Assembly: GCA_040905425.1 (NCBI GenBank) | Contig: JBBDRO010000081.1 | Coordinates: 32,022-45,704, forward strand | DNA: 13,683 nt | Direction of reading: 5' to 3' | Origin: Gemmatimonadota bacterium | Lineage (GTDB): Bacteria > Gemmatimonadota > Gemmatimonadetes > Longimicrobiales > RSA9 | In this document: piece after piece, positions 310-13,583 of the stretch | Numbering within the stretch: position 1 is the stretch's first letter | Layout of the letters: the number at the start of each line of letters is the position of its first letter | Position numbers and translations under genes: made by a program | Notes under the pieces: model-generated | The model's database searches: none | What the model was told of the DNA's origin: nothing | Seen by the model: the letters and a program-made list of their open reading frames with translations, nothing else

Positions 310-1716
310 CTATGGAGCGGCGGGGAGCGGCGTGGCCACCAGGACTGCCGTGACGGCCAGCACCGCCAGCGCGACCACCAGCTCGACGACCGCGGAACGC
401 CGCAGCCGCCCGGCTGCGGCTTCGCGCCCGAGCGTCGGTCGGACTTTCAGCCAGTTGTAGGCCCCGGTCCCGAACACCAGCGAGGCCACGCCGAGCTTGA
501 GCAGGAGCGTGCGTCCGTAGCCCGTGCTCCACAGCGCGGACACTTCTCCAAGATGCAGCCAGGCGGAGAACACGCCCGTCGCCACCACCACGCCGGCGAA
601 CACAAGCGCGGTAGGTGAAAACGCGTTGATCAGCGCGGCGGTCGCGGCTTCTGGCCTGGTGGGCTGCCGGAGTGCGACCGGGATACCGGCCGTAACGACC
701 ACCAGCAGTCCCCCCATCCAGCCGCCGGCTCCCAGCACGTGGAACCCGTCCGCCACGATGGCGAGCCAGCCCACGCCCTGCACACCCGCCGCGTGACCTG
801 ACAGGGCGGGTGTGAAGCCCAGGATGCTCGCGCCCACGGCGGCCAAGGTCCAGCCAGCGCGCCCGCGGCTGCCGGTAAGGGCGAGTCCGAAAGCCACCAC
901 CACGATCCCACCGGCCTGCAGCAACCAGCCCAGGCCCCACGTCGTGCCGGCCAGGAGCCACCCGACCCCCGCCGTGTCGAAGGTCTGCACGGGTCCATGC
1001 AGCGCGTACAGTTGGGCGCAGAGTCGGAGAACCAGCGCCACAACCAGCACAACCACCGCCCCGAGGCCGATACGGGCCGCCCGCGAGCTGGCCTTCGCGA
1101 GCAGGGCCGCACGGTTCGACAGGGAGCCGGACCGGTCCACGAGCGGCACCACGAACACCCGGAAGGCCACCACGCCGATCACCCCCAGCAGCCCCACGAA
1201 GGTGAGCCAGCGCACAACCACGTACAGCGGCGACTCGCTGTCGAATTCCGAGAGCGGCACGGCCACGTTCCCGGCGCCGGTGGCTGCCCGCTCCTCCGGC
1301 GCCGTGACCTCCCCCTGACTCGGTGCGGGAGCAAGGCCTGCCGCGTCCGGCCGGATGGTGAAGGTGTACTCGCCGCGTACCGGGTGACCATCCGGGCCGG
1401 CGACCTGCCAGCGGACGGTGTAGGTGCCGGCAACCAGGCGGCCACGCACGGGAGCCACGAGCACCTCGGCCACGCCCGATGCCCGTCGTAGCTCACCAAG
1501 GTCGACCGTCCCCCGGGGCCCGATAAGGGTAAGGTGCGCCAGGCCGAGCTGGACCGGATTGACGAAGGTGAGGCGGAGCTGATCCGGAGCCGCGGCCAGC
1601 GTGTCGCCGCTCGCCGGCATGGCACCCCTCAGCTCTTCATGCGCCGCCGCGCCCGCCGGCAGCGCCAGGAGGCCGAGGATCGATGCGAGCAGCAAGGCGG
1701 TTCGCAACGGGCTCAC
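310..1716 (-). CDS. Copper resistance/uptake CopC-CopD fusion protein (YcnJ-like), 468 aa
   Basis: GTG at 1716 overlaps the ATPase stop (GTGA). Signal peptide ...AGAAA|HEEL gives an N-terminal His; CopC motif YTVRWQVAGPDGHPVRGEYTF; Pro/Ala linker; multi-TM CopD domain with ALSGHAAG, DGFHVLGAGGWMGGL, FSPTA, YGRTLLLK. The ORF-track start at 1872 lies inside the ATPase gene. Confidence 0.9.
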   Translation of the reverse strand: MSPLRTALLLASILGLLALPAGAAAHEELRGAMPASGDTLAAAPDQLRLTFVNPVQLGLAHLTLIGPRGTVDLGELRRASGVAEVLVAPVRGRLVAGTYTVRWQVAGPDGHPVRGEYTFTIRPDAAGLAPAPSQGEVTAPEERAATGAGNVAVPLSEFDSESPLYVVVRWLTFVGLLGVIGVVAFRVFVVPLVDRSGSLSNRAALLAKASSRAARIGLGAVVVLVVALVLRLCAQLYALHGPVQTFDTAGVGWLLAGTTWGLGWLLQAGGIVVVAFGLALTGSRGRAGWTLAAVGASILGFTPALSGHAAGVQGVGWLAIVADGFHVLGAGGWMGGLLVVVTAGIPVALRQPTRPEAATAALINAFSPTALVFAGVVVATGVFSAWLHLGEVSALWSTGYGRTLLLKLGVASLVFGTGAYNWLKVRPTLGREAAAGRLRRSAVVELVVALAVLAVTAVLVATPLPAAP

Positions 1717-3740
1717 AGCTCGACCCGCTTCAGAAGCTGGGCGTTGAAGGCAACGATCACCGTGCTGGCCGACATGAGCACGGCGCCCACGGCCGGCGTG
1801 AGCAGGATCCCCCAGCCGGCCAGGACACCCGCCGCCAACGGAATCGCGAGAATGTTGTAGCCCGCGGCCCACCAGAGGTTCTGCACCATCTTCCGGTAGG
1901 TGGCGCTGGAGAGTGAGATGATGCGCGGGATGTCGCGGGGGTCAGACCGGACCAGGACGATGTGGCCCGCCTCCACGGCCACGTCGGTGCCCGCGCCGAT
2001 GGCGATCCCGATGTCGGCGGTAGCCAGGGCGGGGGCGTCATTGACGCCGTCGCCCACCATGGCCACCCGCTTCCCCTGCTGCTGAAGCTCACGCACCTTC
2101 GACGCCTTGTCCTCGGGCAGCACCTGCGCGAAGACGGTGTCGATGCCCAGCTCCTCGGCCACCGCGTCGGCCACCGCCTGCGCGTCGCCGGTGAGCATGG
2201 CTACCTCAACGCCACGTTCGTGCAGGGCGTCGATGGCCTGCCTGCTCTCCTCCCGGATGGCGTCGGCCACGGCGAAGACCGCCAGCGCCTCACCATTGCG
2301 GAGCAGGTAGATGGCCGCCTGACCCCGCTCCGCCGCGCGGTCGGCCGCCTCACGCACGGCCTGCGGTACCGATGCGTCCTCCGCCTCCAGCAGCGCCGGG
2401 CCGCCCATGTGGTACTCGGCGCCGTCCACGCTCGCGGCCACGCCCTTTCCCGTGATCGCACGGAACCCGTCCGCGCCCGGAATCTCGAGCTCCCGATCCT
2501 CCGCCGTCTTCACGATTCCGCGGGCGATGGGGTGCTCCGACTCCGTCTCCACCCCGGCGGCGATCCGCAGCGCCTCCTCTTCGGACAGGTCCCCGGCCAC
2601 GGCCAGGTCCACCACCCGGAACTCCCCGAGGGTGAGCGTGCCGGTCTTGTCGAATACCACGACATCCAGGTTCCGCGCTTCCTCGAGGCCGCGCCGGTCC
2701 CGCACCAGCAGCCCGTTCTGAGCGCCCAGGGTGGTGGAGATGGCCACCACCAGCGGGACCGCCAGACCCAGCGCGTGGGGGCAGGCAATCACCAGCACCG
2801 TGACCGTGCGAATGATGGAGAAGTCGATGGGTGCGCCGATGAGCTGCCAGACCACCAGTGTGATGAGCGCCGCGGATACGGCCACGCCGGTCAACATCTG
2901 GGCTGCGCGGTCCGCCAGGTGCTGGGCGCGGGACTTCGACTGCTGGGCGTCGGAGACGAGGCGCATGATCCCGGACAGCGCCGTCTCGTCCCCCGTTCCC
3001 GTCACCTCCAGCCGCAGCGACCCCTCGCCGTTGATGGTGCCGGCGATCACCTCGTCGCCCGCGCCCTTCTTCACCGGTCGCGACTCGCCGGTGATCATGG
3101 CCTCGTTCAGGGCGCTCTCGCCCTTTCGCACCACGCCGTCCACGGGAACGCTCTCGCCAGGGCGGACCAGCACCAGGTCGCCCCGGCTCAGCTCGCCCAC
3201 GGGCACCTCCTCCTCCTCCCCGTCTTCGCCGATCCGGCGCGCCGTGTCGGGGAGCAGCTTTGCCAGCTCCTGCAGTGCCCCCTGGGCCTGGTTGATCGAG
3301 CGCATCTCGATCCAGTGGCCCAGTAGCATGATGGTCACCAGCGTCGCCAGCTCCCACCAGAGCGGCTCCGCCTCCAGCAGCCCCAGCTCGACCACCCAGG
3401 AGAAGACGAACGCCACCACGATGGCCAGCGAGATGAGCGTCATCATGCCGGGCAGCTTTGCCCGGAGCTCGCCCATGGCGCCCCGGATGAAGACCCAGCC
3501 GCCGTAGAAGAAGATCACCGTGGAGAGGACGGGGCCGATCCAGTCCGCGCCGGGAAACGACGGGGCCGTGTAGCCGAGCAGCATCTGGACGTGCTCGGCC
3601 CAGAAGACCACCGGGACCGTCAGGATCAGCGACAGCCAGAACTTGCTCCGGAACATGCCCACGCTATGCCCGGCATGGGCGTCATGGTCACCGTGGTCCT
3701 GGTGGCCGTGATCGCGACCAGTGTGGCGATGTTCACTCAT
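1713..3740 (-). CDS. copB: Heavy-metal-translocating P1B-3 type ATPase (CopB-like copper exporter), 675 aa
   Basis: His-rich N-terminus (HRH...DHGHQDHGDHDAHAGH), TGES, transmembrane CPH (IACPHALGL), DKTGTLT, SEHPIA, GDGVNDAP, GYN and MSAST metal-site motifs typical of P1B-3 ATPases. Confidence 0.95.
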   Translation of the reverse strand: MSEHRHTGRDHGHQDHGDHDAHAGHSVGMFRSKFWLSLILTVPVVFWAEHVQMLLGYTAPSFPGADWIGPVLSTVIFFYGGWVFIRGAMGELRAKLPGMMTLISLAIVVAFVFSWVVELGLLEAEPLWWELATLVTIMLLGHWIEMRSINQAQGALQELAKLLPDTARRIGEDGEEEEVPVGELSRGDLVLVRPGESVPVDGVVRKGESALNEAMITGESRPVKKGAGDEVIAGTINGEGSLRLEVTGTGDETALSGIMRLVSDAQQSKSRAQHLADRAAQMLTGVAVSAALITLVVWQLIGAPIDFSIIRTVTVLVIACPHALGLAVPLVVAISTTLGAQNGLLVRDRRGLEEARNLDVVVFDKTGTLTLGEFRVVDLAVAGDLSEEEALRIAAGVETESEHPIARGIVKTAEDRELEIPGADGFRAITGKGVAASVDGAEYHMGGPALLEAEDASVPQAVREAADRAAERGQAAIYLLRNGEALAVFAVADAIREESRQAIDALHERGVEVAMLTGDAQAVADAVAEELGIDTVFAQVLPEDKASKVRELQQQGKRVAMVGDGVNDAPALATADIGIAIGAGTDVAVEAGHIVLVRSDPRDIPRIISLSSATYRKMVQNLWWAAGYNILAIPLAAGVLAGWGILLTPAVGAVLMSASTVIVAFNAQLLKRVEL

Positions 3741-4680: not shown

Positions 4681-4875
4681 CTCCGGAAGCGGCTGCATCG
4701 CATCGATGTGCGGATGCACGTCATCCCTACCGCACCGCTCCCAGCGCACTCCCGCGTTGAACGCGCGCCCCTCCAGCAGCGCCTACACATCGTGGACGCC
4801 GTCGCGAATGTAATGCCTGAGCGAACGGTCCTGGAATTGCACCCGCCGCGCGCCACACACGCACATAGGAGAAGC

Positions 4876-6231
4876 ATGCCAACATACATGAAGCACGCGG
4901 CGCTCCCGGGCGCCTTCATCCTGGCCCTGGCCACCACGCCCGCGGCCGGGCAGCACGAACAGCACGGCGCCATGGCCGGGCAGGAAGCCGACGCCATGGC
5001 CCACACCATGTGGTCCACGGAACTCGGCGCCGGATGGCGCCTGCTCGGCATGGCGCAGGCCTTTCCCATCGTCACCTTCGGGGCGCCGGGCCAGAAGGAG
5101 GGCAGCGCGCTGCGGGAGACGGCGTTCTACCTCACACAGCCGGCCACGATGTTCAACGTCGAGAGCCCGGACTCGCGCCTCTCGCTCCGCACCACCCTCA
5201 ACTTTGAGGGTCTCACGCTGGAGAACGGCGAGCTGACGTTCGGCGGCTGGGGTGAGGGCTTCATCGACAAGCGCCACCCCCACACCCTGCTGCACGAGCT
5301 CATGCTCAGCGTGAATCTCTGGAACGTGGCGGGTGGCCAGGCCTCGATCTCGGGAGGGAAGGGTTTCGCGCCCTACGGCACGGATGACCCCATGGCCCGC
5401 CCCGGCCTGAAATACCCCACCAACCACCATCTCTCCCAGCTGCTGGAACGCTGGACGCTGAACGGCGTCTTCCTGCACAGTGGCTGGAGCGTGGAAGCGG
5501 GTCTCTTCGGCGGCACGGAGCCGGAAGGACCCTACGACCTCAGCAACATCGAAAGCTTCGGAGACAGCTGGTCGGCGCGCGTGGCGCGGCGGTGGGGCGC
5601 CGGCCACGGCCCCGGCGCTGCGTGGGAGGCCACCGCCAGCTACGCCTCGGTCACCGAGGAGCACCACGACGAGGAGGTCACGACGGAGCTCTGGAACGTG
5701 GCGCTGCGGCACGCCTCCGCGTACGCCTTCGGTGACCTCTACACGCTGGCCGAATATTCCCGCGGTCTGGGCGAGCATGACGAGGATTACTTCAGCGCAC
5801 TGGGCGAGGCGCAGCTCCTGCTGGGTCGCCATCAGCCCTACCTGCGCGTGGAACACGCCACCCGGCCCGAGTACCCGCGGGACGGGACGCCGGGCAGCGC
5901 CGATTTCTTTCGCTACGACCACGACGAGGAGGCCATCGGTGCCACGCGCTGGACCATCCTCAATCTGGGGTACAACTACCTGGCCACGCGCGGTGCGGTG
6001 AGTATCCGCCCCTTCGTCAATACGCAGTTCCACGCCGTCAGCAGGGAGCGCGGCCCCGCCACGCTCGAGCCGGACGCCCTCTTCGACGCGGACCGCTTCT
6101 GGAGCGTGTCGCTGGGCGCGCGCGTCTTCCTGGGCGGTGACCCCATGCGCATGGGGTCCTACGGCATCCTCGACGCCATGACCTCGATGAGCCGCATGAT
6201 GGAGGACAACGCCGGCATGCAGCACAACTGA
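4876..6231 (+). CDS. Putative outer-membrane beta-barrel protein with His/Met-rich termini, likely metal related, 451 aa
   Basis: AGGAG at 4867-4871 before ATG 4876; signal peptide ...ALATTPAAG|QHEQHGAM; motifs DKRHPHTLLHELM, PTNHHLSQ, FGGTEPE; alternating aromatic strands; Met-rich tail. Confidence 0.75.
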   Translation: MPTYMKHAALPGAFILALATTPAAGQHEQHGAMAGQEADAMAHTMWSTELGAGWRLLGMAQAFPIVTFGAPGQKEGSALRETAFYLTQPATMFNVESPDSRLSLRTTLNFEGLTLENGELTFGGWGEGFIDKRHPHTLLHELMLSVNLWNVAGGQASISGGKGFAPYGTDDPMARPGLKYPTNHHLSQLLERWTLNGVFLHSGWSVEAGLFGGTEPEGPYDLSNIESFGDSWSARVARRWGAGHGPGAAWEATASYASVTEEHHDEEVTTELWNVALRHASAYAFGDLYTLAEYSRGLGEHDEDYFSALGEAQLLLGRHQPYLRVEHATRPEYPRDGTPGSADFFRYDHDEEAIGATRWTILNLGYNYLATRGAVSIRPFVNTQFHAVSRERGPATLEPDALFDADRFWSVSLGARVFLGGDPMRMGSYGILDAMTSMSRMMEDNAGMQHN

Positions 6232-6234
6232 CCC

Positions 6235-7143
6235 GTGATAAGCCGCGTTCCTGAAGCCGGCTTCGCCGCGCTCGTTGAACTGCTACGCGGCCGCCGGATC
6301 GTGGTCCTGGCGGGCGCGGGGTGCAGTACGGAGTCGGGCATTCCCGACTACCGCGGGCCCGCGGGGAGCCTGCGCCGCCGTGCGCCCATCCAGTACCAGG
6401 AGTTCGTACGCAGCTTGGAGGGACGGCAGCGCTACTGGGCACGCAGCGCCGTCGGCTGGCCGCGCTTCACCGCGGCCCGGCCCAACGCCGCACACCGGGC
6501 ACTGGCGCAGCTCGAGGCGGTGGGCGCGTTGCGCGGCGTCATCACGCAGAACGTGGACGGGCTGCACCACGCCGCCGGCAGCCGCCGGGTGGTCGAGTTG
6601 CACGGCTCGCTGGCGTGGGTGCGCTGCCTGGAGTGCGGCAGCCGGGTGCGGCGGGCCGCCCTGCAGCAGCGGCTCCTGGCCATGAACGTGGGGTGGACGG
6701 AGCGGCTGCGGAGCGCCGCGGACGCGGTGCGGATCGAAAGCGCTCCGGATGGTGATGCCGAACTGCCGCCCGCCGCGCTCACGAGCTTCCGCGTGCCCGA
6801 CTGCGCGGACTGCCGCGGCCTGCTGAAGCCGGACGTGGTGTTCTTCGGGGAAAACGTCCCCCGGGAACGGGTGGACGAGGCGTGGCGGCTCTTCCACGAG
6901 GCCGATGTACTGCTGGTAGTGGGCTCCTCGCTGGCCGTCTACTCGGGCCGCCGTTTCGTCTACATGGCGCGGGACACGGGGCTCCCCGTGGCGGTGGTCA
7001 ACCTGGGGCCCACGCGCGCGGATGAGATGGCCGCCGTCAAGGTGGAGGGGTCGGTAGGCGTGCTTCTGCCCCGCCTCGCGGAGGAACTCGGTGCACCCCA
7101 CACCGCCACCCTGCCCGCGCCCCGGCCATTTTCAAAAATGTGA
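6235..7143 (+). CDS. cobB: NAD-dependent protein deacylase, Sir2 family class II (SIRT4-like), 302 aa
   Basis: GAGCSTESGIPDYRG, RQRYWARS, ITQNVDGLH, VELHG, Zn ligands CLEC/CADC, APDGD, LKPDVVFFGE, VGSSL, NLGPTRAD. Confidence 0.95.
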   Translation: MISRVPEAGFAALVELLRGRRIVVLAGAGCSTESGIPDYRGPAGSLRRRAPIQYQEFVRSLEGRQRYWARSAVGWPRFTAARPNAAHRALAQLEAVGALRGVITQNVDGLHHAAGSRRVVELHGSLAWVRCLECGSRVRRAALQQRLLAMNVGWTERLRSAADAVRIESAPDGDAELPPAALTSFRVPDCADCRGLLKPDVVFFGENVPRERVDEAWRLFHEADVLLVVGSSLAVYSGRRFVYMARDTGLPVAVVNLGPTRADEMAAVKVEGSVGVLLPRLAEELGAPHTATLPAPRPFSKM

Positions 7144-7362: not shown

Positions 7363-7391
7363 TTGACGCCGCGCCACGCGAGCCTTATGCT
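7363..7391 (+). promoter_or_regulatory. Sigma70-type promoter for the SAM-II leader / sulfur operon
   Basis: TTGACG (7363-7368), 17-bp spacer, TATGCT (7386-7391); predicted start near 7398, just upstream of the aptamer. Confidence 0.8.
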
Positions 7392-7404
7392 GGCGGTTCG
7401 ACAA

Positions 7405-7458
7405 TCCGTCGTGGTGATTTGCCGCCGCTTGCCGCCACGTAAAACAAGGTGCTAAAAC
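7405..7458 (+). ncRNA. SAM-II (SAM_alpha-type) riboswitch aptamer
   Basis: CGTGGTGATTTG-CCGCCG-CTTGC-CGCCACG-TAAAA-CAAG-GT-GCTAAAA follows the alphaproteobacterial SAM-II pattern (CGUGGUGAUUUG...GCUUGCAGCCACGUUAAACAAGUCGCUAAA). P1 is 7410-7415/7434-7439; pseudoknot CTTG 7428-7431 / CAAG 7445-7448; precedes sulfur genes. Confidence 0.85.
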
Positions 7459-7464
7459 GCGACT

Positions 7465-7499
7465 GCCCGGCGGCTGTTTTCGCCGGGCTTTTCGTTTTT
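7465..7499 (+). terminator. Intrinsic terminator 1 (riboswitch expression platform)
   Basis: Stem GCCCGGCG (7465-7472) / CGCCGGGC (7481-7488), followed by TTTTCGTTTTT. Confidence 0.85.
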
Positions 7500-7526
7500 C
7501 CGGGACCCACACGCCGAAGGCGCACG

Positions 7527-7598
7527 ATGCCGTTCTGCCACCTGATGTGCATGTGCCGCGAGTGTACGGCTCTTCCACGCGGAGAGGCCGCCCCGTAG
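7527..7598 (+). CDS. Putative Cys/Met-rich attenuator leader peptide, 23 aa (MPFCHLMCMCRECTALPRGEAAP)
   Basis: GAAGG (7516-7520) 6 nt before ATG; 4 Cys and 2 internal Met codons within codons 4-13; TAG 7596-7598; followed by mutually exclusive hairpins and a terminator. Confidence 0.72.
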   Translation: MPFCHLMCMCRECTALPRGEAAP

Positions 7599-7645
7599 AC
7601 GTGCGCGCCCTGGTGGCGCACCGGCCCAGAGCCGGCACGATGCGC

Positions 7646-7678
7646 GGGCTCCTCTCCATGCGAGAGGGGCCCTTTTTT
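7646..7678 (+). terminator. Intrinsic terminator 2 (attenuator 3:4 hairpin)
   Basis: 11-bp stem GGGCTCCTCTC (7646-7656) / GAGAGGGGCCC (7662-7672) with one G-U pair, loop CATGC, then TTTTTT; ends 21 nt before the start codon at 7700. Confidence 0.88.
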
Positions 7679-7699
7679 ATTGCACCCGGAGGAAAGGTC

Positions 7700-8686
7700 A
7701 TGAGCAGACTCGGCATCTACTACGAGCACCCCGACTGGTTCGAGCCGCTGTTCCAGGAGTTGGAGCGGCGCGACGTGCCCCACGCCCGCATCGACGCGCG
7801 GTCGCATGGGTTCGATCCCACCGGGGAGGTGGAATGGGACGTCGCTTTCAACCGTATGAGTCCCTCTTCGTGGCTGCGCGGTGCGGGACACGCCATCAGC
7901 TACACCGGGGAATTCCTGGCGCATCTGGAGCGGCGCGGCGTACGGGTGATCAACGGTACGCGCGCCTGGCGGACGGAGGTTTCGAAGGCGGCGCAGATCG
8001 CGCTGCTCGAGCGGCTGGGACTGCCCCATCCGCGCACGCGCGTGTGCAACAATCCGGCGGCGCTTGCGGACAAGGCGGAGGGGCTACGCTACCCCGTGAT
8101 CGTGAAGCCCAACGTGGGTGGCAGCGGCGCCGGCGTCCGCCGCTTCGACGATCCGGTGGCGCTGGCCGCCTGGGCATCCCGTGGCGGCCCGGACGCGGGG
8201 GTGGATGGCACCCTGCTGGTGCAGGAGTACGTGCCACCGGAGGCCGGCCGCATCGTGCGCGTGGAGGTGCTGAACGGCCGCTTCCTTTACGCCATCCGCA
8301 TCTACGCGCCGGCGGACAGCTTCAACCTGTGCCCCGCCGACGTGTGCCAGGGGGTGGACGGCGCCGAACTCAGCCGCTCCGCCTGCGCGGTGGACGCCCC
8401 GCGCAACGGTCTGCGGGTCGAGGCATACGTGCCGCCGAGAGGAATCATCGCCGAGGTGGAGCGCATCACGGCCGCCGCGGGCATCGAGATCGGCGGCGTG
8501 GAGTACGTCGTGCACGAGCGGGCCGGCGGGCACGTCTTCTACGACGTGAACGCGCTGTCCAACTTCGTGGCGGACGGCCCGCGGGTGCTGGGCTTCGATC
8601 CGTTCGCCCGGCTGGCCGACTGGCTGGAGGCGGAGCTGGACGGCGCCGCGCGTGCTCCGCGCGCCTCCGGACTGGAGGTGGCGTGA
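7700..8686 (+). CDS. ATP-grasp ligase, RimK / glutathione-synthetase-like, 328 aa
   Basis: GGAGGAAAGG before ATG 7700; MSRLGIYYEHPDWF, FNRMSPSS, VING, SKAAQ, YPVIVKPNVGGSGAGV, LVQEYV, GGVEY, YDVNALSNF. The ORF-track start at 7547 runs through the leader RNA. Confidence 0.88.
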   Translation: MSRLGIYYEHPDWFEPLFQELERRDVPHARIDARSHGFDPTGEVEWDVAFNRMSPSSWLRGAGHAISYTGEFLAHLERRGVRVINGTRAWRTEVSKAAQIALLERLGLPHPRTRVCNNPAALADKAEGLRYPVIVKPNVGGSGAGVRRFDDPVALAAWASRGGPDAGVDGTLLVQEYVPPEAGRIVRVEVLNGRFLYAIRIYAPADSFNLCPADVCQGVDGAELSRSACAVDAPRNGLRVEAYVPPRGIIAEVERITAAAGIEIGGVEYVVHERAGGHVFYDVNALSNFVADGPRVLGFDPFARLADWLEAELDGAARAPRASGLEVA

Positions 8687-9732
8687 TGCGCTTCGGTTAT
8701 TGGCTCCCCGTCTTCGGTGGCTGGCTGCGCAACGTGGAGGACGAGCGCATGGAGGTGTCCTGGCCCTACGTGAGCCGCCTGGCCCGGCGCAGTGAGGAGA
8801 TCGGCTTCGACCTGACGCTCATCGCCGAGCTGAACCTGAATGACATCAAGGGGGAGGAGGCGCCCTCGCTGGACGCGTGGAGCACGGCGGCGGCGCTGGC
8901 CGCCGTGACCGAGCGCCTGGAGCTCATGGTGGCGGTTCGCCCCACCTTCCACCACCCCGCCACGTTCGCCAAGCAGGCCGCCAATATCGACCACATCAGC
9001 GGCGGCCGGCTGTCCATCAACGTGGTCTCCGCGTGGTGGGCCACCGAGGCGCGGCGCTACGGCATCCGCTTCGACCCCCACGACGAGCGCTACGCGCGCA
9101 CCGCCGAGTGGCTGCGGGTGGTGAACGGCATGTGGACCGAGCCCGTCTTCACCCACCGCGGCCACTACTACACGGTGGAGGAGGCCATCCTGGAGCCCAA
9201 ACCGCTCCGTCGGCCCCGGCCGACGGTCTATGCCGGCGGCGAGTCACCCGCTGGCAAGGCGCTCATTGCCGAGCACTGTGACGCGTGGCTGACGCACGGG
9301 GATCCGCCCGAGGTGATCGCCCCGAAGCTGGCCGACATGCGGGAGCGGCGCGCGCGGCATACGGGCGCACCCCCCATGCCCTTCGGCGTGGCGGGCTACG
9401 CCATCGTGCGGGACAGTGAGCGTGCGGCACAGAGGGAGCTGGAGCGCATCACGGACGTGCGCCAGAGCGCACGCGGCTTTGCCAACTACCAGGACTGGAT
9501 CGGCAACACGCAGCTCGAACGCAAGGTCAGCCTGGCCGACTACTCCGTCTCGAACCGCGGGCTGCGCGCGAGGCTGGTGGGCACCCCCGAGCAGGTGGCC
9601 GAGCGGATCCTGGCCTTCGAAGCGGCGGGCGTGGAGTTGCTGCTGCTCCAGTTCAGTCCCCAGTACGAGGAGATGGAACGCTTCGCGGCCGAGGTGATGC
9701 CGCTCGTGCGGCGCGAGTCGGCCGCCGCGTGA
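8686..9732 (+). CDS. Luciferase-like (LLM) flavin-dependent monooxygenase, SsuD/SfnG-like, 348 aa
   Basis: ATG overlaps the upstream TGA (TGATG); MRFGYWLPVFGGW, GFDLTLIAE, ELMVAVRP, DHISGGRLSINVVSAW, EPKP, VYAGGES, LVGTPEQVAE. Substrate not determinable from sequence. Confidence 0.92.
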   Translation: MRFGYWLPVFGGWLRNVEDERMEVSWPYVSRLARRSEEIGFDLTLIAELNLNDIKGEEAPSLDAWSTAAALAAVTERLELMVAVRPTFHHPATFAKQAANIDHISGGRLSINVVSAWWATEARRYGIRFDPHDERYARTAEWLRVVNGMWTEPVFTHRGHYYTVEEAILEPKPLRRPRPTVYAGGESPAGKALIAEHCDAWLTHGDPPEVIAPKLADMRERRARHTGAPPMPFGVAGYAIVRDSERAAQRELERITDVRQSARGFANYQDWIGNTQLERKVSLADYSVSNRGLRARLVGTPEQVAERILAFEAAGVELLLLQFSPQYEEMERFAAEVMPLVRRESAAA

Positions 9733-9735
9733 GCC

Positions 9736-9789
9736 GCGATTCGTACCTTCGGCACGGCGTTTCGTACCAGCGCTCAGGCAATCCGTGGC
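9736..9789 (+). promoter_or_regulatory. Direct repeats with 21-bp period, LytTR-family-like binding site
   Basis: GCGATTCGTACC (9736-9747) and GCGTTTCGTACC (9757-9768), 11/12 identical; weaker third copy GCAATCCGTGGC (9778-9789). Confidence 0.45.
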
Positions 9790-9904
9790 TGAAGCGAAAC
9801 CATCCCCCCGCCCGCTCCGTCCAAGTCAGCGTGCGGGGAAGGCAGACCATGCAGACCACATGTTCTCTCCCCCGCGAAAACCCGAGGCAAACGGAGAGAC
9901 GACC

Positions 9905-10408
9905 ATGAGGACCAAGCGAGTGATCACGACGGCGGCGGCGGCGCTGATGCTGGCCTTCCAGGCCAACCCGGCCGCGGCTGGCGAGCCCGATATCAAGAAG
10001 GCCGACGAGCTGAAGGCCCAGGCCGTCCAGCTCTTCGACCAGCCGGACCGCTGGCTGGAGGCGGCGCGGCTGCTGGAGAAGTCGGTGGAGTACCGGGACG
10101 CCGCCGATGCGGAGACCCACGCCAGTCTCATGACGGCCGCCGGCATCTGGATGAGTGCCGGGGAGTACAACCGGGCCTACAGCGCAGCACGGCGGGCGGG
10201 CGAGAGCGCCCATGCCCGCGGCGCCGTCCAGGACGCGGCCCACAGCTTCATCAGCGCGGCCGCGGTGGCCGCCCAGTTGGGCCGGACCGGAGACGCCGAG
10301 CAGCTCATGGAACGCGCGCGTGTGCTGGCCGCCTCGCCGCTGCTGAATCAGCAGCAGCGGGACCGCATCCTGGCTCGTGACATGCAGTTCGTGGCCGTGC
10401 GCGGCTAG
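9905..10408 (+). CDS. Secreted alpha-helical (TPR-like) hypothetical protein, 167 aa
   Basis: GGAGA before ATG 9905; signal peptide MRTKRVITTAAAALMLAFQANPAAA|GE; Ala-rich helices such as WLEAARLLEKS, GEYNRAYSAARRAGE, LGRTGDAEQLMERA. Confidence 0.75.
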   Translation: MRTKRVITTAAAALMLAFQANPAAAGEPDIKKADELKAQAVQLFDQPDRWLEAARLLEKSVEYRDAADAETHASLMTAAGIWMSAGEYNRAYSAARRAGESAHARGAVQDAAHSFISAAAVAAQLGRTGDAEQLMERARVLAASPLLNQQQRDRILARDMQFVAVRG

Positions 10409-10433
10409 CCTTTCGCGCCGGCTCGCCCATGAA

Positions 10434-10468
10434 GCGGGGCCGCCTTCCCTGGGGAGGCGGCCCCGTTC
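10434..10468 (+). terminator. GC-rich hairpin, probable terminator after the secreted protein gene
   Basis: CGGGGCCGCCTTCC / GGGAGGCGGCCCCG stem of about 14 bp; U-tract is weak (TTC). Confidence 0.55.
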
Positions 10469-10542
10469 GCGTCCAGCCTTCCGCCGCGCACACGCGGAAT
10501 TCCCCCCGCCACGATCGCGGAGGTATCCCCACGACACGGCCA

Positions 10543-10570
10543 TTGACTCTGGTGACCTGGCATGTAACTT
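10543..10570 (+). promoter_or_regulatory. Sigma70-type promoter of the apbE operon
   Basis: TTGACT (10543-10548), 16-bp spacer, TAACTT (10565-10570). Confidence 0.55.
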
Positions 10571-10606: not shown

Positions 10607-11746
10607 ATGAACGGCATGCCCCAACGCTGCACCTCACGCTCCACGCCACGCCCGCTCCGGCGGGCGGTGACGATCGTGACCGTGCCCCTCCTGCTCGCGG
10701 GCGGTGGCCTGGTGGGGGGCGGTGGCGTGTTCGCGGGCGCTGCAGTGGCGGCCGAGCGGCAGCCGGCACCCGGCGCCGAACGGGCGGACGTGTGGCTGGC
10801 GCGCGAGAGCTTCGTCATGGGCACGCTCCTCCGCCTGGAGGTTGCGGCGCCGACCCGGGCGGCGGCGGCGGAGGCCAGCGAGCATGCGCTGGCGGCGGTG
10901 CATCGGCTGGATGGCCTGCTCTCCACCTGGGACGGGAGCGCCGAGATGGCACGGCTGAATGCGGCATCCGCGGGCAGCTCCGCCGCGGTGTCGGCCGCGC
11001 TACTGGCGCTCCTGCTGGAGGCGGAGGTGTGGTCCAAGCGCACCGGCCGGGCGTTCGAGCCGGCCGTGGGACCTCTGATCGACGCCTGGGAGCTGCGCGG
11101 GGAGGGCCGCGTGCCTGACGGGGCGGCGTTGCGCGCTGCGCTGCGCGCCGTGCGGGCCGGCGTGACGCTGGACGCCGCGGCCGGGACTCTCACGCGCAAC
11201 GACCCGGCCGGGTGGATCGACACGGGCGCGTTCGGCAAGGGCGCCGCGCTCGCCGCCGCGGCCGACGCGCTGCGCACGGCGGGCGTGGCTGACGCGGTGC
11301 TCGATTTCGGCGGCCAGATCATGGCCCTTGGCCGGCCGGCGGACGGCGGCGGGTGGCGGGTTCCCGTAGCCCACCCGCGCCACCGGCACCAGGCCGTGGG
11401 AGAGCTTCTGCTGAGGGACGTATCGGCCGCCACGAGCGGCGCCTCGGAGCGCTTCATCGAGGTGGACGGCCAGCGCTACGGGCACCTGCTCGATCCCCGC
11501 ACTGGCCAGCCGGTACCCGCATGGGGGAGCGTGACCGTGGTGGCCGCTGACCCCCTGGCCGCGGACGCCCTGTCCACGGCGCTGTTCGTCCTCGGCCCCC
11601 GCGCCGGCATGGCCTGGGCGCGGGACCGGGAGGATGTGGCGGTCCTCTTCCTGGAGGATACGCCCCGGGGCCTCGTGCCCCACTGGAACCCCGCAATGGA
11701 GCGGTGGTTGACCCGAACGATCCAAACCGAGAGGACGCTACGATGA
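10607..11746 (+). CDS. apbE: FAD:protein FMN transferase (ApbE)
   Basis: FVMGT, LSTWDGSAEMARLN, AFEPAVGPLIDAW, IDTGAFGKG, VLDFGGQI, ATSGASERF, YGHLLDPRTG, ADALSTALFVLG; N-terminal hydrophobic export signal. Start uncertain (10607 or 10616). Confidence 0.92.
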   Translation: MNGMPQRCTSRSTPRPLRRAVTIVTVPLLLAGGGLVGGGGVFAGAAVAAERQPAPGAERADVWLARESFVMGTLLRLEVAAPTRAAAAEASEHALAAVHRLDGLLSTWDGSAEMARLNAASAGSSAAVSAALLALLLEAEVWSKRTGRAFEPAVGPLIDAWELRGEGRVPDGAALRAALRAVRAGVTLDAAAGTLTRNDPAGWIDTGAFGKGAALAAAADALRTAGVADAVLDFGGQIMALGRPADGGGWRVPVAHPRHRHQAVGELLLRDVSAATSGASERFIEVDGQRYGHLLDPRTGQPVPAWGSVTVVAADPLAADALSTALFVLGPRAGMAWARDREDVAVLFLEDTPRGLVPHWNPAMERWLTRTIQTERTLR

Positions 11747-13011
11747 GCGTATCGAGATGGGCGGTGGTGGTGCTGGGCGCCGCGCTGCTATGGACCCCCA
11801 CGGAGGCGGCGGCGCAGGAGCGGCCCGACTCGGTGAAACTGGCGGAGCTGGAGCGGCGCATGGACGCCATGACGCGCGAGCTGGAGCAACTCCGGTTGGG
11901 GCGTGAGGTGGTGCAGGCCGATACGTCCATCCTGGGGCTGGGGCCGGCCGCGTCCAAGGTCTACAAAGTAGGCCAGGGCGTCTCGCTTGGCGGCTACGGG
12001 GAGATCCTGTACGAGAACTATTCCGGCGAGCGCCAGGACGGCTCTCCCGCCAGCGCGCGTGACCAGGTGGACGCCCTGCGCGCCATCCTGTACGTGGGCT
12101 ACAAGTTCAACGACCGTTTGCTCTTCAACTCCGAGATCGAGATCGAGCACGTGGACGAGATCTTCCTGGAATTTGCCTACGTGGACTACCTGCTGAACGA
12201 CCACGTGGGTCTGCGTACGGGGCTGCTGTTGGCCCCCATGGGTATCGTCAACGAACTGCACGAGCCGCCCACGTTCCTGGGCACCGAGCGGGCCGTGACC
12301 GAGAACGCCATCATCCCCACCACCTGGCGGGAGAACGGCATCGGTCTGTTCGGCGGAGTGGGAGACTTTGCCTGGCGGGGGTACGTCATGAACGGGCTTG
12401 ACGGCGCGGGCTTCAGCGGCTCGGGGCTGCGCGGCGGGCGGCAGAAGGGCGCCCGGGCGCTGGCGGAGGACTTCGGTGTGGCCGCGCGCCTGGACTACCA
12501 GGGCATTCTCGGCCTGCTGGCCGGCGGCTCCGTCTACTACGGCCAGTCGGGCCAGAACGCGGAGCTGGACGGGCAGGAGGTGGACGCCGGCACGCTCATC
12601 TGGGACGGGCACCTGGACTACAATGTGGGTGCGTTGGACCTGCGGGCGCTGGTGGCGGGCGCGCACGTGAACGACGCGCGCGAGCTCAGCGCCCTCAACG
12701 GCCTCACGGGCGCCAACGGCATCGCGGAGTCCATGCTGGGCTGGTACGTGCAGGCCGGCTATGACGTGCTGCGCGGCACCGACATGGCCGACCAGCTCAT
12801 CCCGCACGTCCGCTACGAGCAGGTGAACACGCAGCGGAGCGTACTCGAAGGCTTCGCGGCCAACCCCGCGAACGACCGGACCATCCTCACCGTGGGCGCG
12901 TCCTGGAAACCCATCAGCAACGTGGTGTGGAAGACGGACTACCAGATCCACTCCAACGAGGCCGACCTGGGTACGAACCAGTTCAACATGGCGCTCGGAT
13001 GGATCTTCTGA
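11743..13011 (+). CDS. Outer-membrane porin-like beta-barrel with N-terminal coiled coil, 422 aa
   Basis: ATGA overlap with the apbE stop, GAGGA upstream; signal peptide ...TEAAA|QE; coiled coil KLAELERRMDAMTRELEQLR; motifs FNSEIEIEH, EFAYVDY, NELHEPPTF, IIPTTWRENG; C-terminal LGWIF barrel signature. Confidence 0.85.
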   Translation: MSVSRWAVVVLGAALLWTPTEAAAQERPDSVKLAELERRMDAMTRELEQLRLGREVVQADTSILGLGPAASKVYKVGQGVSLGGYGEILYENYSGERQDGSPASARDQVDALRAILYVGYKFNDRLLFNSEIEIEHVDEIFLEFAYVDYLLNDHVGLRTGLLLAPMGIVNELHEPPTFLGTERAVTENAIIPTTWRENGIGLFGGVGDFAWRGYVMNGLDGAGFSGSGLRGGRQKGARALAEDFGVAARLDYQGILGLLAGGSVYYGQSGQNAELDGQEVDAGTLIWDGHLDYNVGALDLRALVAGAHVNDARELSALNGLTGANGIAESMLGWYVQAGYDVLRGTDMADQLIPHVRYEQVNTQRSVLEGFAANPANDRTILTVGASWKPISNVVWKTDYQIHSNEADLGTNQFNMALGWIF

Positions 13012-13583
13012 GCCCGCTACGGGCGGCGGCGGCGCGGGGGCTCCTCCTGGGAGCCCTCGCGGCGCTCGCGCTGCCGGGCGCCGCGGCCGCCCAGCTGTTC
13101 ATGAGCCAGGAGGAAGCGCTCCGCCTGGCCTTTCCGGCACCGGCCACCATCGAGCGGAAGACGGCGTACCTCACGGACGCCGAACTCGCCCGGGCCAGGG
13201 AGCTGGCCGGCGATCGCGTTGAGGTGGAGCAGGGCATCGTCACCCACTACGTGGGTCGGCGCGGCGGAGCTGCGGTGGGCGTGGCCTACTTCGACGCGCA
13301 CCGGGTGCGCACGCTCCCCGAGGTGCTGATGATCGTGGTGGGGCCCGACGGGCGCGTGCAGCGGGTGGAGGTGATCAAGTTCACGGAGCCGCCCGACTAC
13401 GTGGCACCGGACGGGTGGCTGGCGCAGTTCCTGGATCGGCGCCTGGATGGCCGGCTCTCCACGAAGGCTGACATCGTGAACATGACGGGCGCCACGCTCA
13501 CGTCGCGCGCCGTCACCGACGCGGTCCGGCGGGTGCTCGCCCTGCATCAGGTGATCGGGCCGCTGGAGGACCGGGGGCGGTGA
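12999..13583 (+). CDS. Extracytoplasmic FMN-binding protein (ApbE substrate), 194 aa
   Basis: ATG 12999 overlaps the porin end by 13 bp; signal peptide ...LPGAAAA|QLFMSQEEALRLAFP; HRVRT, FTEPPDY, WLAQF; flavinylation motif IVNMTGATLTS ([S/T]GA[S/T]). Confidence 0.88.
   Translation: MDLLSPLRAAAARGLLLGALAALALPGAAAAQLFMSQEEALRLAFPAPATIERKTAYLTDAELARARELAGDRVEVEQGIVTHYVGRRGGAAVGVAYFDAHRVRTLPEVLMIVVGPDGRVQRVEVIKFTEPPDYVAPDGWLAQFLDRRLDGRLSTKADIVNMTGATLTSRAVTDAVRRVLALHQVIGPLEDRGR

Follow-up and report, generated by a model that had tools for sequence, protein, structure and literature searches.

A SAM-II riboswitch and a probable cysteine/methionine leader-peptide attenuator in series before an ATP-grasp/monooxygenase gene pair of a Gemmatimonadota bacterium

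The regulatory region considered here lies in a 13,683-nucleotide (nt) stretch of DNA from a Gemmatimonadota bacterium of the Longimicrobiales (RSA9; GenBank assembly GCA_040905425.1, contig JBBDRO010000081.1, positions 32,022 to 45,704), hereafter the window, whose own numbering is used throughout with features on the forward strand unless marked (-). The interval between a Sir2-type deacetylase gene (6235-7143) and an ATP-grasp ligase gene starting at 7700 holds the whole of the leader, which, taken as a whole, is very probably best explained as an S-adenosylmethionine (SAM) riboswitch followed by a leader-peptide attenuator. Region 7363-7700 would then constitute a single long leader with two conditional terminators in series. 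A preliminary description of the window had recognised an attenuator at 7516-7678 with mixed cysteine (Cys) and methionine (Met) control codons; this reading is amended here to a two-stage leader, since a SAM-II riboswitch and a first terminator (7401-7500), both missing from it, precede the open reading frame (ORF). With a riboswitch and its own terminator upstream, the operon would therefore be gated twice, by SAM and by the charging of tRNA.

The leader-peptide ORF (7527-7598) comprises 23 codons and a stop, running from the ATG at 7527-7529 to the TAG at 7596-7598 with MPFCHLMCMCRECTALPRGEAAP as its product, and a Shine-Dalgarno-like GAAGG (7516-7520) stands before it with a spacer of 6 nt. 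The ORF carries, as was claimed, four Cys codons (TGC at 7536, 7548 and 7554; TGT at 7563) and two internal Met codons (7545 and 7551) in a control-codon run at 7536-7565. The core of segment 1, the 5' strand of the anti-antiterminator, lies at 7567-7576, and folding predicts alternative partners for segment 2 (7581-7597), namely segment 1 or, in the antiterminator, segment 3 together with the bases preceding it; the words first assigned to the two segments, GGCTCTTCC and GGAGAGGCC, do stand at 7568-7576 and 7581-7589. Terminator 2 (7646-7678), found by a hairpin scan, consists of segment 3 (7646-7656), a loop, segment 4 (7662-7672) and a T tract (7673-7678); its stem (7646-7672) has 11 pairs, 8 of which are G-C, is followed by TTTTTT and has a local hairpin energy of -22.7 kcal/mol. 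CCTCTCC at 7651-7657 is indeed the exact complement of GGAGAGG at 7581-7587. The two inner hairpins proposed to lie between these strands were returned by ViennaRNA at 7605-7609:7615-7619 and 7622-7625:7631-7634, with CGUGC/GCACG (7600-7604:7635-7639) as the closing helix, and in the unconstrained fold of an RNA cut before segment 4 this linker domain (7600-7639; hairpins 7605-7619 and 7622-7634) sits within the 2:3 helix 7581-7587:7651-7657. The leader stop is separated from the start of the ATP-grasp gene by 101 nt. An ORF with start and stop, a codon run, a terminator, an antiterminator and an anti-antiterminator, the features by which the attenuator class is recognised, are all found in this region.

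Upstream of the ORF, the SAM-II (SAM_alpha, RF00521) aptamer at 7401-7475 scores 41.3 bits against a gathering threshold of 36, covers positions 1-79 of the 79 in the model and is the single match in the whole 4.12-Mb genome. Its putative expression platform, terminator 1 (7465-7500), has a stem at 7465-7488 of 9 pairs, 8 of them G-C, followed by TTTTCGTTTTT. Such platforms are usually built so that bases of the aptamer pair with the 5' arm of the terminator, and an RNA cut at 7478 folds with aptamer bases 7431-7436 paired to the 5' arm of terminator 1 at 7469-7474 (a single-sequence fold, the pseudoknot not being modelled). A promoter-like TTGACG-17-TATGCT at 7363-7391, a match to consensus only at 9 of 12 positions, would begin the transcript a few bases ahead of the riboswitch; one such site was found against 0.1 expected in shuffles. 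A DNA search of 61 related genomes gave matches in 20, nearly all of them across the riboswitch part only, and as the likeness at the DNA level is confined to the riboswitch, the leader was traced via the downstream ATP-grasp protein.

The sample thus assembled consisted of the 400 nt upstream of 103 orthologous ATP-grasp genes (three were masked or of insufficient length, L050 is a duplicate of L024, and L029, L030 and L037 come from unpublished genomes). An ORF with a Cys/Met run and a strong terminator after its stop was present in 54 of the 103 loci, a run only in 4, a terminator only in 6 and neither in 39, so that the expected enrichment of Cys and Met codons in homologous leaders was borne out across several phyla. 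Two further loci, L026 and L038, with two Cys codons and one respectively, fell under the threshold yet plainly carry the same element, while L065 has it farther upstream, in front of an additional gene. Runs such as MCMC, MMCCCMC and AMCCCMCMC are typical. Among the 503 run residues of 51 loci, Cys accounts for 46.1% and Met for 14.7%, compared with 0.74% and 1.62% in the long ORFs of this genome; at least one Met occurs in 41 of the 51 runs, at least two in 24 and none in 10. The Cys codons at run positions are 103 TGC and 129 TGT, against 4 TGG, the share of TGT among Cys codons in the long frames of this genome being 0.197. The peptides, 19-55 residues long and variable in their N-termini and stop positions, have nothing in common beyond the Cys/Met run and those residues dictated by segment 2, which is conserved at wobble positions, whereas the Cys codons alternate between TGC and TGT. 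In 17 of the 51 leaders a -10-like hexamer stands 5-10 nt before an in-frame ATG, 16 of these having a TTGNNN -35 as well, which suggests from sequence that these transcripts are leaderless; an SD-like (Shine-Dalgarno-like) word was found in 7, and 46 have an in-frame ATG. The leader peptides of L025, L046 and L047, and similarly those of L038 and L048, all from distant ATP-grasp clades, share the start MIHAT..., the rest of the N-terminus being unconserved; L038 has a -10-like hexamer 6 nt before the ATG and L025 an SD-like word, while no -10-like signal was seen in the scan of L046-L048, and the shared start may result from demands of initiation or of the nascent chain. A scan of the window's own genome (4.12 Mb, both strands, all frames) for similar Cys/Met runs returned 76 short ORFs, two of which precede a strong terminator, namely the present locus and one unconvincing case; the covariance model of the leader matches its own genome once.

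A further comparison concerns the pairing of segment 2. Segment 3 pairs with both segments 2 and 4, and segment 2 should therefore copy the 3' arm of the locus in which it lies. The 5' arm of the terminator varies in sequence by clade (CCTCTCC, GGCCGCTC, GGCTCCC, ACCCGC and others), and for 48 of the 54 loci its best partner begins 0-25 nt past the final Cys codon. Segment 2 and arm read GGAGAGG/CCTCTCC in the clade of the present locus, GAGCGGCC/GGCCGCTC in Acidobacteriota, GGGAGCC/GGCTCCC in L054 and L073, and CGCGGGT/ACCCGCG-type in Thermoanaerobaculia. When the window after each run was compared with the 3' arm of the same locus, the lengths of the longest common words summed to 324 over 51 loci, against 266.7 +/- 7.5 with permuted arms, and none of 10,000 permutations equalled the observed sum, a test rendered conservative by the kinship among the loci; the pairing proposed earlier from a single sequence thus co-varies with the terminator. 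Three-way compensation is seen in L102 (AGCC/GGCT/GGCT) and L134 (CTTCCCC/GGGGAAGG/CCTTCCCC), and also in L035 and L031. For the terminated state, RNAalifold on 13 Gemmatimonadota leaders gave the 1:2 hairpin, the terminator and, between them, a conserved hairpin showing G-C/A-U exchange. In 18 Gemmatimonadota-type leaders aligned to a covariance model, from which pairs were counted in that state only, 90.7% of the cells are paired, compared with 80.5% in shuffles, and 13 pairs are altered on both sides against 7.0 in shuffles, a count reached by none of 500 shuffles and by no slid register; helix 1 of these 18 sequences has 8 pairs, 4 of them changed on both sides, with 91.6% of cells paired. 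In the MAFFT and covariance-model alignments (A2, A3, A4) the terminator arms are out of register in several rows, for which reason no column-wise count is given for the 2:3 pairs. The second linker hairpin (CCGR-loop-YCGG; 7622-7634, columns 108-160 of alignment A4), which lies at or just past the leader stop, is conserved, with G-C/A-U exchange in 6-7 sequences, and may serve as a pause site, as a spacer or as a piece of the antiterminator junction.

Each of the states required is thermodynamically feasible in this copy. When no ribosome is present, transcripts of lengths 7595-7650, and again those from 7672 on, fold with segments 1 and 2 paired, length 7661 alone among those tested departing from this. 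The full fold pairs the control codons (7520-7565) with 7592-7645 and forms the terminator, the tip of the long helix being 7567-7571:7586-7590 and 7573-7576:7581-7584. Segment 1 is thus correctly placed in the preliminary description but not in its extent, the full fold carrying it back over the ORF to 7520; as the control codons are themselves paired, a stall at any of them should act. A comparable long helix between the run and a downstream box appears in the minimum-free-energy structure of 12 of 18 relatives. With a ribosome represented by a masked footprint of 31 nt and either TGT 7563 or TGC 7554 in its A site, the full 2:3 domain was obtained (7581-7587:7651-7657, 7590-7593:7646-7649 and 7594-7597:7641-7644; local energy -48.5 kcal/mol), and with the ribosome masked at the stop codon the terminator remained, both outcomes being those anticipated.

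The events proposed are as follows. With SAM bound, the aptamer would hold 7431-7436, terminator 1 (7465-7488) would form and transcription would end at 7488-7500; without SAM, 7431-7436 would pair with the 5' arm of terminator 1 and RNA polymerase would continue. The 23-codon ORF would be translated during transcription. When charged tRNA-Cys, and probably tRNA-Met, is plentiful, the ribosome would reach the TAG at 7596 and cover segment 2, and terminator 2 would form. A ribosome stalled within 7536-7565 would instead keep the ORF region and segment 1 off segment 2, and the freed segment 2 (7581-7597) could pair with the emerging segment 3 (7641-7657), in which case terminator 2 would be blocked and both genes transcribed. 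With no ribosome at all, the long 1:2 helix would be expected first and the terminator next. Expression of the operon would, on balance, require both a low level of SAM and a shortage of sulfur amino-acyl-tRNA. What we infer in this scheme is that the ORF is translated, that ribosomes stall on it, that the switch responds to Cys and Met and that SAM is bound; the interpretation of the second stage as an attenuator is supported by the comparison of sequences.

Several observations weigh against this interpretation or parts of it. The 2:3 complementarity of the present locus was equalled by 11 of 100 dinucleotide shuffles, the sequence being rich in G+C, and only 20 of 54 loci reached 5 or fewer per 100 in the same per-locus test; own-locus complementarity being unexceptional, the weight of the case comes from the homologues. 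A cross-clade test of duplex energies was noisy, the own arm being best in only 14 of 51 loci (means of -14.15 for own arms vs -11.47 kcal/mol); its clades had been set crudely from the arms themselves, and it was replaced by the permutation test. The alignments behind the pair counts were fitted to the structure. In an RNA cut at 7661, the 2:3 pairing is favoured even without a ribosome (-72.3 vs -66.8 kcal/mol), so that the role of the 1:2 helix and the outcome without translation rest on the order of folding. The footprint reaches the core of segment 1 from the last Cys codon alone, and the earlier codons need the extended helix. The position of the stop is unconserved: here it starts 15 nt (and ends 18 nt) past the start of segment 2, whereas in most close relatives it ends some 36-53 nt past it. 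The element is absent from 49 of the 103 orthologous loci at the thresholds used, 5 of the 51 leaders have no in-frame ATG, and a simple scan found neither an SD-like nor a -10-like signal in 27. As for Met, its enrichment is partly circular, the run window having been chosen by Cys plus Met at half weight; AUG codons could serve pairing too, and the leaders of a distant ATP-grasp clade (L045-L047) are Thr/Cys repeats with little Met.

The same leader plan was met with outside the ATP-grasp loci when a covariance model (R1) was searched in 151 genomes of the class, 21 of which gave matches, false positives included. Cys/Met leaders with the same hairpin plan precede an O-acetylhomoserine sulfhydrylase/homocysteine synthase gene in three loci (L130, L131 and L132), the products of the first two being above the cut-off of TIGR01326 and the translation of the third near-identical to that of L131. 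Leaders of the same build precede ThrC-family genes in L133, with a strong Cys/Met run, and in L134, with one Cys and three Met. A Met-rich leader with five internal Met and one Cys (L137:1501-1643) stands behind a SAM-II riboswitch and before an aspartate kinase gene, a Phe-rich leader (L136:1501-1613) before a prephenate dehydratase gene and a Leu-rich one (L152:1501-1683) before a leuA-like gene, the last assigned by translation only. Runs of Phe, Leu, Met and Cys/Met being thus matched to their genes, leader-peptide attenuation appears to be in general use in the class. A SAM-II riboswitch above the cut-off directly precedes the leader in six further loci (L024, L026, L028, L049, L133 and L137), so that the tandem, with the present window included, is found before three gene types; among the ATP-grasp leader loci scanned, the riboswitch is present in only 4 of 20. 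The model also matched before glutamate-synthase-like genes (L145 and L148). Its matches in L135, L138, L139, L142 and L144 are plain terminators after cold-shock genes and were set aside as false positives.

Which amino acids are sensed is the point on which the strongest alternative turns. Of the mixed control originally proposed, the Cys half is the more secure and the Met half plausible, the support for the latter being the 41 of 51 runs with Met and the Met-rich aspartate kinase leader. The same attenuator might instead sense Cys only, with AUG kept for pairing with a conserved GYGYG box downstream or as alternative starts, a sub-variant compatible with attenuation that is rather unlikely in our estimation and nevertheless a serious one. 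It would account for the pairing of the run at 7546-7554 with 7599-7607 in the full fold and for the run-to-box pairing of the 12 relatives above, as well as for the 10 runs without Met and the Thr/Cys repeats of the distant clade, and the published sulfur amino-acid leader-peptide systems that were found are Cys-only. It sits less easily with the share of Met in the runs (14.7% against 1.62%), partly circular though that figure is, with the 24 runs that have at least two Met, and with the aspartate kinase leader, in which five internal Met accompany a single Cys.

It is improbable that the element switches as RNA without being translated, whether as a second riboswitch or as a leader bound by a protein, with its conserved UGY/AUG-rich strand structural and the frame incidental. 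At about 68% G+C an open frame is nothing unusual, the full fold places the run in a helix, and the leaders without an in-frame ATG or a start signal would be expected; yet the number and spacing of the Cys codons are free while their identity is kept, as the TGC, TGT and TGG counts attest, an in-frame ATG is present in all but five leaders, and the 17 leaderless-type and 7 SD-like starts speak for translation. The Phe, Leu and Met runs of the sister leaders also fit the genes downstream (those for Phe and Met being confirmed). A scan of 7500-7700 against Rfam matched no family, the best being ncS037 over 7544-7678 at 14.2 bits against a gathering threshold of 112 (E 8.9).

Short Cys-rich ORFs beside ATP-grasp enzymes, with a terminator between the precursor and the enzyme genes, are typical of peptide natural-product clusters. 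The layout at 7527-7700 resembles this, and the small ORF could accordingly yield a functional product, be it a Cys-rich ribosomal peptide precursor modified by the ATP-grasp enzyme and the monooxygenase or a metal-binding micropeptide, with the hairpin setting the ratio of peptide to enzyme mRNA. There is a weak match of the ligase to the ATP-grasp peptide maturase model TIGR04187, but at 29 bits against a cut-off of 350 the protein falls outside the maturase family. The peptides have no conserved leader and core, only the run and the residues forced by segment 2 recurring, and wobble positions are kept in segment 2 while Cys codons switch between TGC and TGT. Leaders of the same type also occur where there is no ATP-grasp partner, before homocysteine synthase and ThrC-family genes, neither a protease gene nor an exporter gene comes next (the following ORF is on the opposite strand), and the SAM riboswitch upstream suits metabolism instead; a peptide product is thus very improbable. 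Least credible of all is a chance ORF with a constitutive or leaky terminator that ends a riboswitch-derived small RNA without any sensing of amino acids, for although further unexplained terminators follow SAM-II at S. meliloti metA (PMC9373788) and the complementarity at this locus alone is not significant, run and terminator occur together in 54 loci against 4 and 6 with either alone, most leader loci are free of the riboswitch, and segment 2 follows the terminator sequence from locus to locus.

The genes placed under the riboswitch and attenuator form an overlapping pair. Gene 1 (7700-8686) encodes an ATP-grasp ligase of 328 residues belonging to no named family, RimK-like at best and below the family cut-offs; a search of structure databases gave nothing close, RimK being best at 45 bits. 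Its Shine-Dalgarno sequence, GGAGGAAAGG at 7688-7697, lies outside every predicted helix. Gene 2 (8686-9732), whose start overlaps the stop of gene 1 (ATGA), encodes a flavin mononucleotide (FMN)-dependent luciferase-like monooxygenase of the SsuD/SfnG (sulfonate/sulfone) group, with dimethylsulfone and alkanesulfonate monooxygenases as the nearest named relatives (PDB 3rao, 8vw6 and 8t0u) and 252 bits against TIGR04021, under its cut-off of 383. No paper naming 8vw6 came up in the literature searched. ATP-grasp orthologues, at 59-69% identity or, in a distant clade, at about 33%, were found in 26 of the 61 related genomes, and the closest protein match comes from a Longimicrobiales metagenome-assembled genome. 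A monooxygenase homologue is present in 89 of 105 fetched ATP-grasp loci, with 62-82% identity across phyla. In a species-wide collection, 592 of 600 scanned stretches encode an ATP-grasp relative, some 4,300 stretches being estimated in all, and the carriers include Gemmatimonadota, Acidobacteriota, Methylomirabilota, Limnocylindria (Limnocylindrales) and Eisenbacteria, among others. An FMN-reductase-like frame, as judged by translation alone, directly precedes the ATP-grasp gene in some loci of Gemmatimonadales (e.g. L055). The present operon is the sole one in its genome with a SAM-II riboswitch and the sole one with such a leader. Its regulation points to a tie between the gene pair and the sulfur amino-acid economy, and the operon would serve sulfur scavenging. 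LdmS, the S-box-controlled Asp-Met ligase of staphylococci described in PMC9486568, is comparable to gene 1 by analogy only.

Elsewhere in the window, genes for a heavy-metal P-type ATPase and a CopC/CopD fusion protein form, at 310-3740 (-), a copper-resistance neighbourhood that has no relation to the leader. Long frames at 4708-6231, 9653-10543 (-) and 11704-13011 have no match in Pfam or NCBIfam, and as the opposite strand is open in each as well, either strand may be the coding one. Nearby lie genes for ApbE (10607-11746) and for a protein with an FMN-binding domain (12927-13583).

With the trpL, hisL, pheL, leuL and thrL attenuators of enterobacteria the leader shares a translated ORF with a run of the relevant codons, mutually exclusive helices (1:2, 2:3 and 3:4), an intrinsic terminator immediately ahead of the first structural gene and a decision made by the position of the ribosome. 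It differs in that Cys, and probably Met, would be sensed, in its Gemmatimonadota-type host and in the riboswitch in series upstream; in addition, many of its relatives appear leaderless, and the regulated genes lie outside any pathway of known function. We know of no Cys or Met leader of this kind in enterobacteria. A ligand-sensing RNA is combined with a short ORF in the mgtA leader of Salmonella, where a Mg2+ riboswitch accompanies the proline-codon ORF mgtL, and tandem attenuators precede mgtCBR. These leaders likewise integrate two signals by means of a ligand-sensing RNA and one or more short ORFs sensing amino-acid or tRNA status, but in them a single set of alternative stems serves all elements, with Rho or one attenuator as the main means of action, whereas here two complete modules with their own intrinsic terminators would stand in series, both reporting on sulfur amino acids.

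Cys-sensing leaders have been described elsewhere. In the polycysteine leaderless small ORFs of mycobacteria (the 'Cys ribulon', bioRxiv 10.1101/834739), a Cys run senses the supply of cysteine via ribosome pausing, the device being shared by several sulfur-metabolism operons and acting on translation, with no intrinsic terminator. Their run is pure poly-Cys at the end of the ORF, whereas here Met residues interrupt it and an intrinsic terminator provides the read-out, the Shine-Dalgarno sequence of gene 1 being free of predicted helices. The present ORF lacks the leaderless start of the mycobacterial ones, lying about 130 nt inside the transcript, behind the riboswitch and after the SD-like GAAGG, although the 17 leaderless-looking relatives resemble them in this respect. 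Another is uORFC-8-2 (PMC8632094), a predicted ribosome-mediated attenuator before cysS in Rhodobacterales with conserved Cys codons (UGC, some UGU) and a U-run terminator; as described in that report, it has two tandem Cys codons at positions 14-15, occurs only before cysS in one alphaproteobacterial order and, unlike the present leader, has neither Met codons nor a riboswitch, a distinction drawn from its published description. Candidate Cys leader peptides without terminators have also been reported in Actinobacteria (PMC1262725). For the SAM-II riboswitches of S. meliloti, a terminator is predicted for metZ and an unexplained second terminator lies downstream at metA (PMC9373788). The order of aptamer and intrinsic terminator (metZ), with a second terminator further downstream (metA), is therefore alike; here, by contrast, the second terminator would have a leader-peptide sensor of its own, the host is non-proteobacterial and the gene is not metA, metZ or metX. 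A search of the literature, with most subscription journals and the supplementary motif lists (e.g. that of PMC8632094, which could hold a related upstream ORF motif) outside its scope, found no account of the present leader or of a Cys/Met leader before an ATP-grasp or luciferase-like monooxygenase gene, nor any mixed Cys/Met control codons or SAM-II and leader-peptide tandem. The mechanism is classical, and what is new lies in the mixed Cys and Met run, its coupling to a riboswitch, the phyla concerned and the ATP-grasp/monooxygenase pair under control.

To our knowledge, reports of leader-peptide attenuation come almost entirely from proteobacteria and some actinobacteria and, where Cys is concerned, from mycobacteria. 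Attenuation keyed to sulfur amino acids, with comparative support, would now extend to Gemmatimonadota, Acidobacteriota and other little-studied soil phyla, and through its regulation the leader hints at what a very widespread and uncharacterised ATP-grasp/monooxygenase pair may do. The locus also lets one ask whether methionine codons can act as attenuator control codons. It may tentatively be suggested, with more doubt than belief, that the SAM-II riboswitch and a dual Cys and Met attenuator in series form an AND gate for sulfur status in which the Met codons are true sensors, that this leader and the aspartate kinase leader would be the first methionine-sensing leader peptides, that Gemmatimonadota have reused the module in front of at least three gene types, and that the Cys/Met leader by itself marks the widespread gene pair as a route, not described before, by which soil phyla salvage sulfur amino acids. 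A riboswitch and a sensor of tRNA charging in series would represent a natural integration of several signals on one mRNA and a possible template for synthetic gates. For the organism itself, the most likely meaning is that the host, a soil/sediment bacterium, turns on an uncharacterised two-enzyme sulfur operon only under a shortage of sulfur amino acids.

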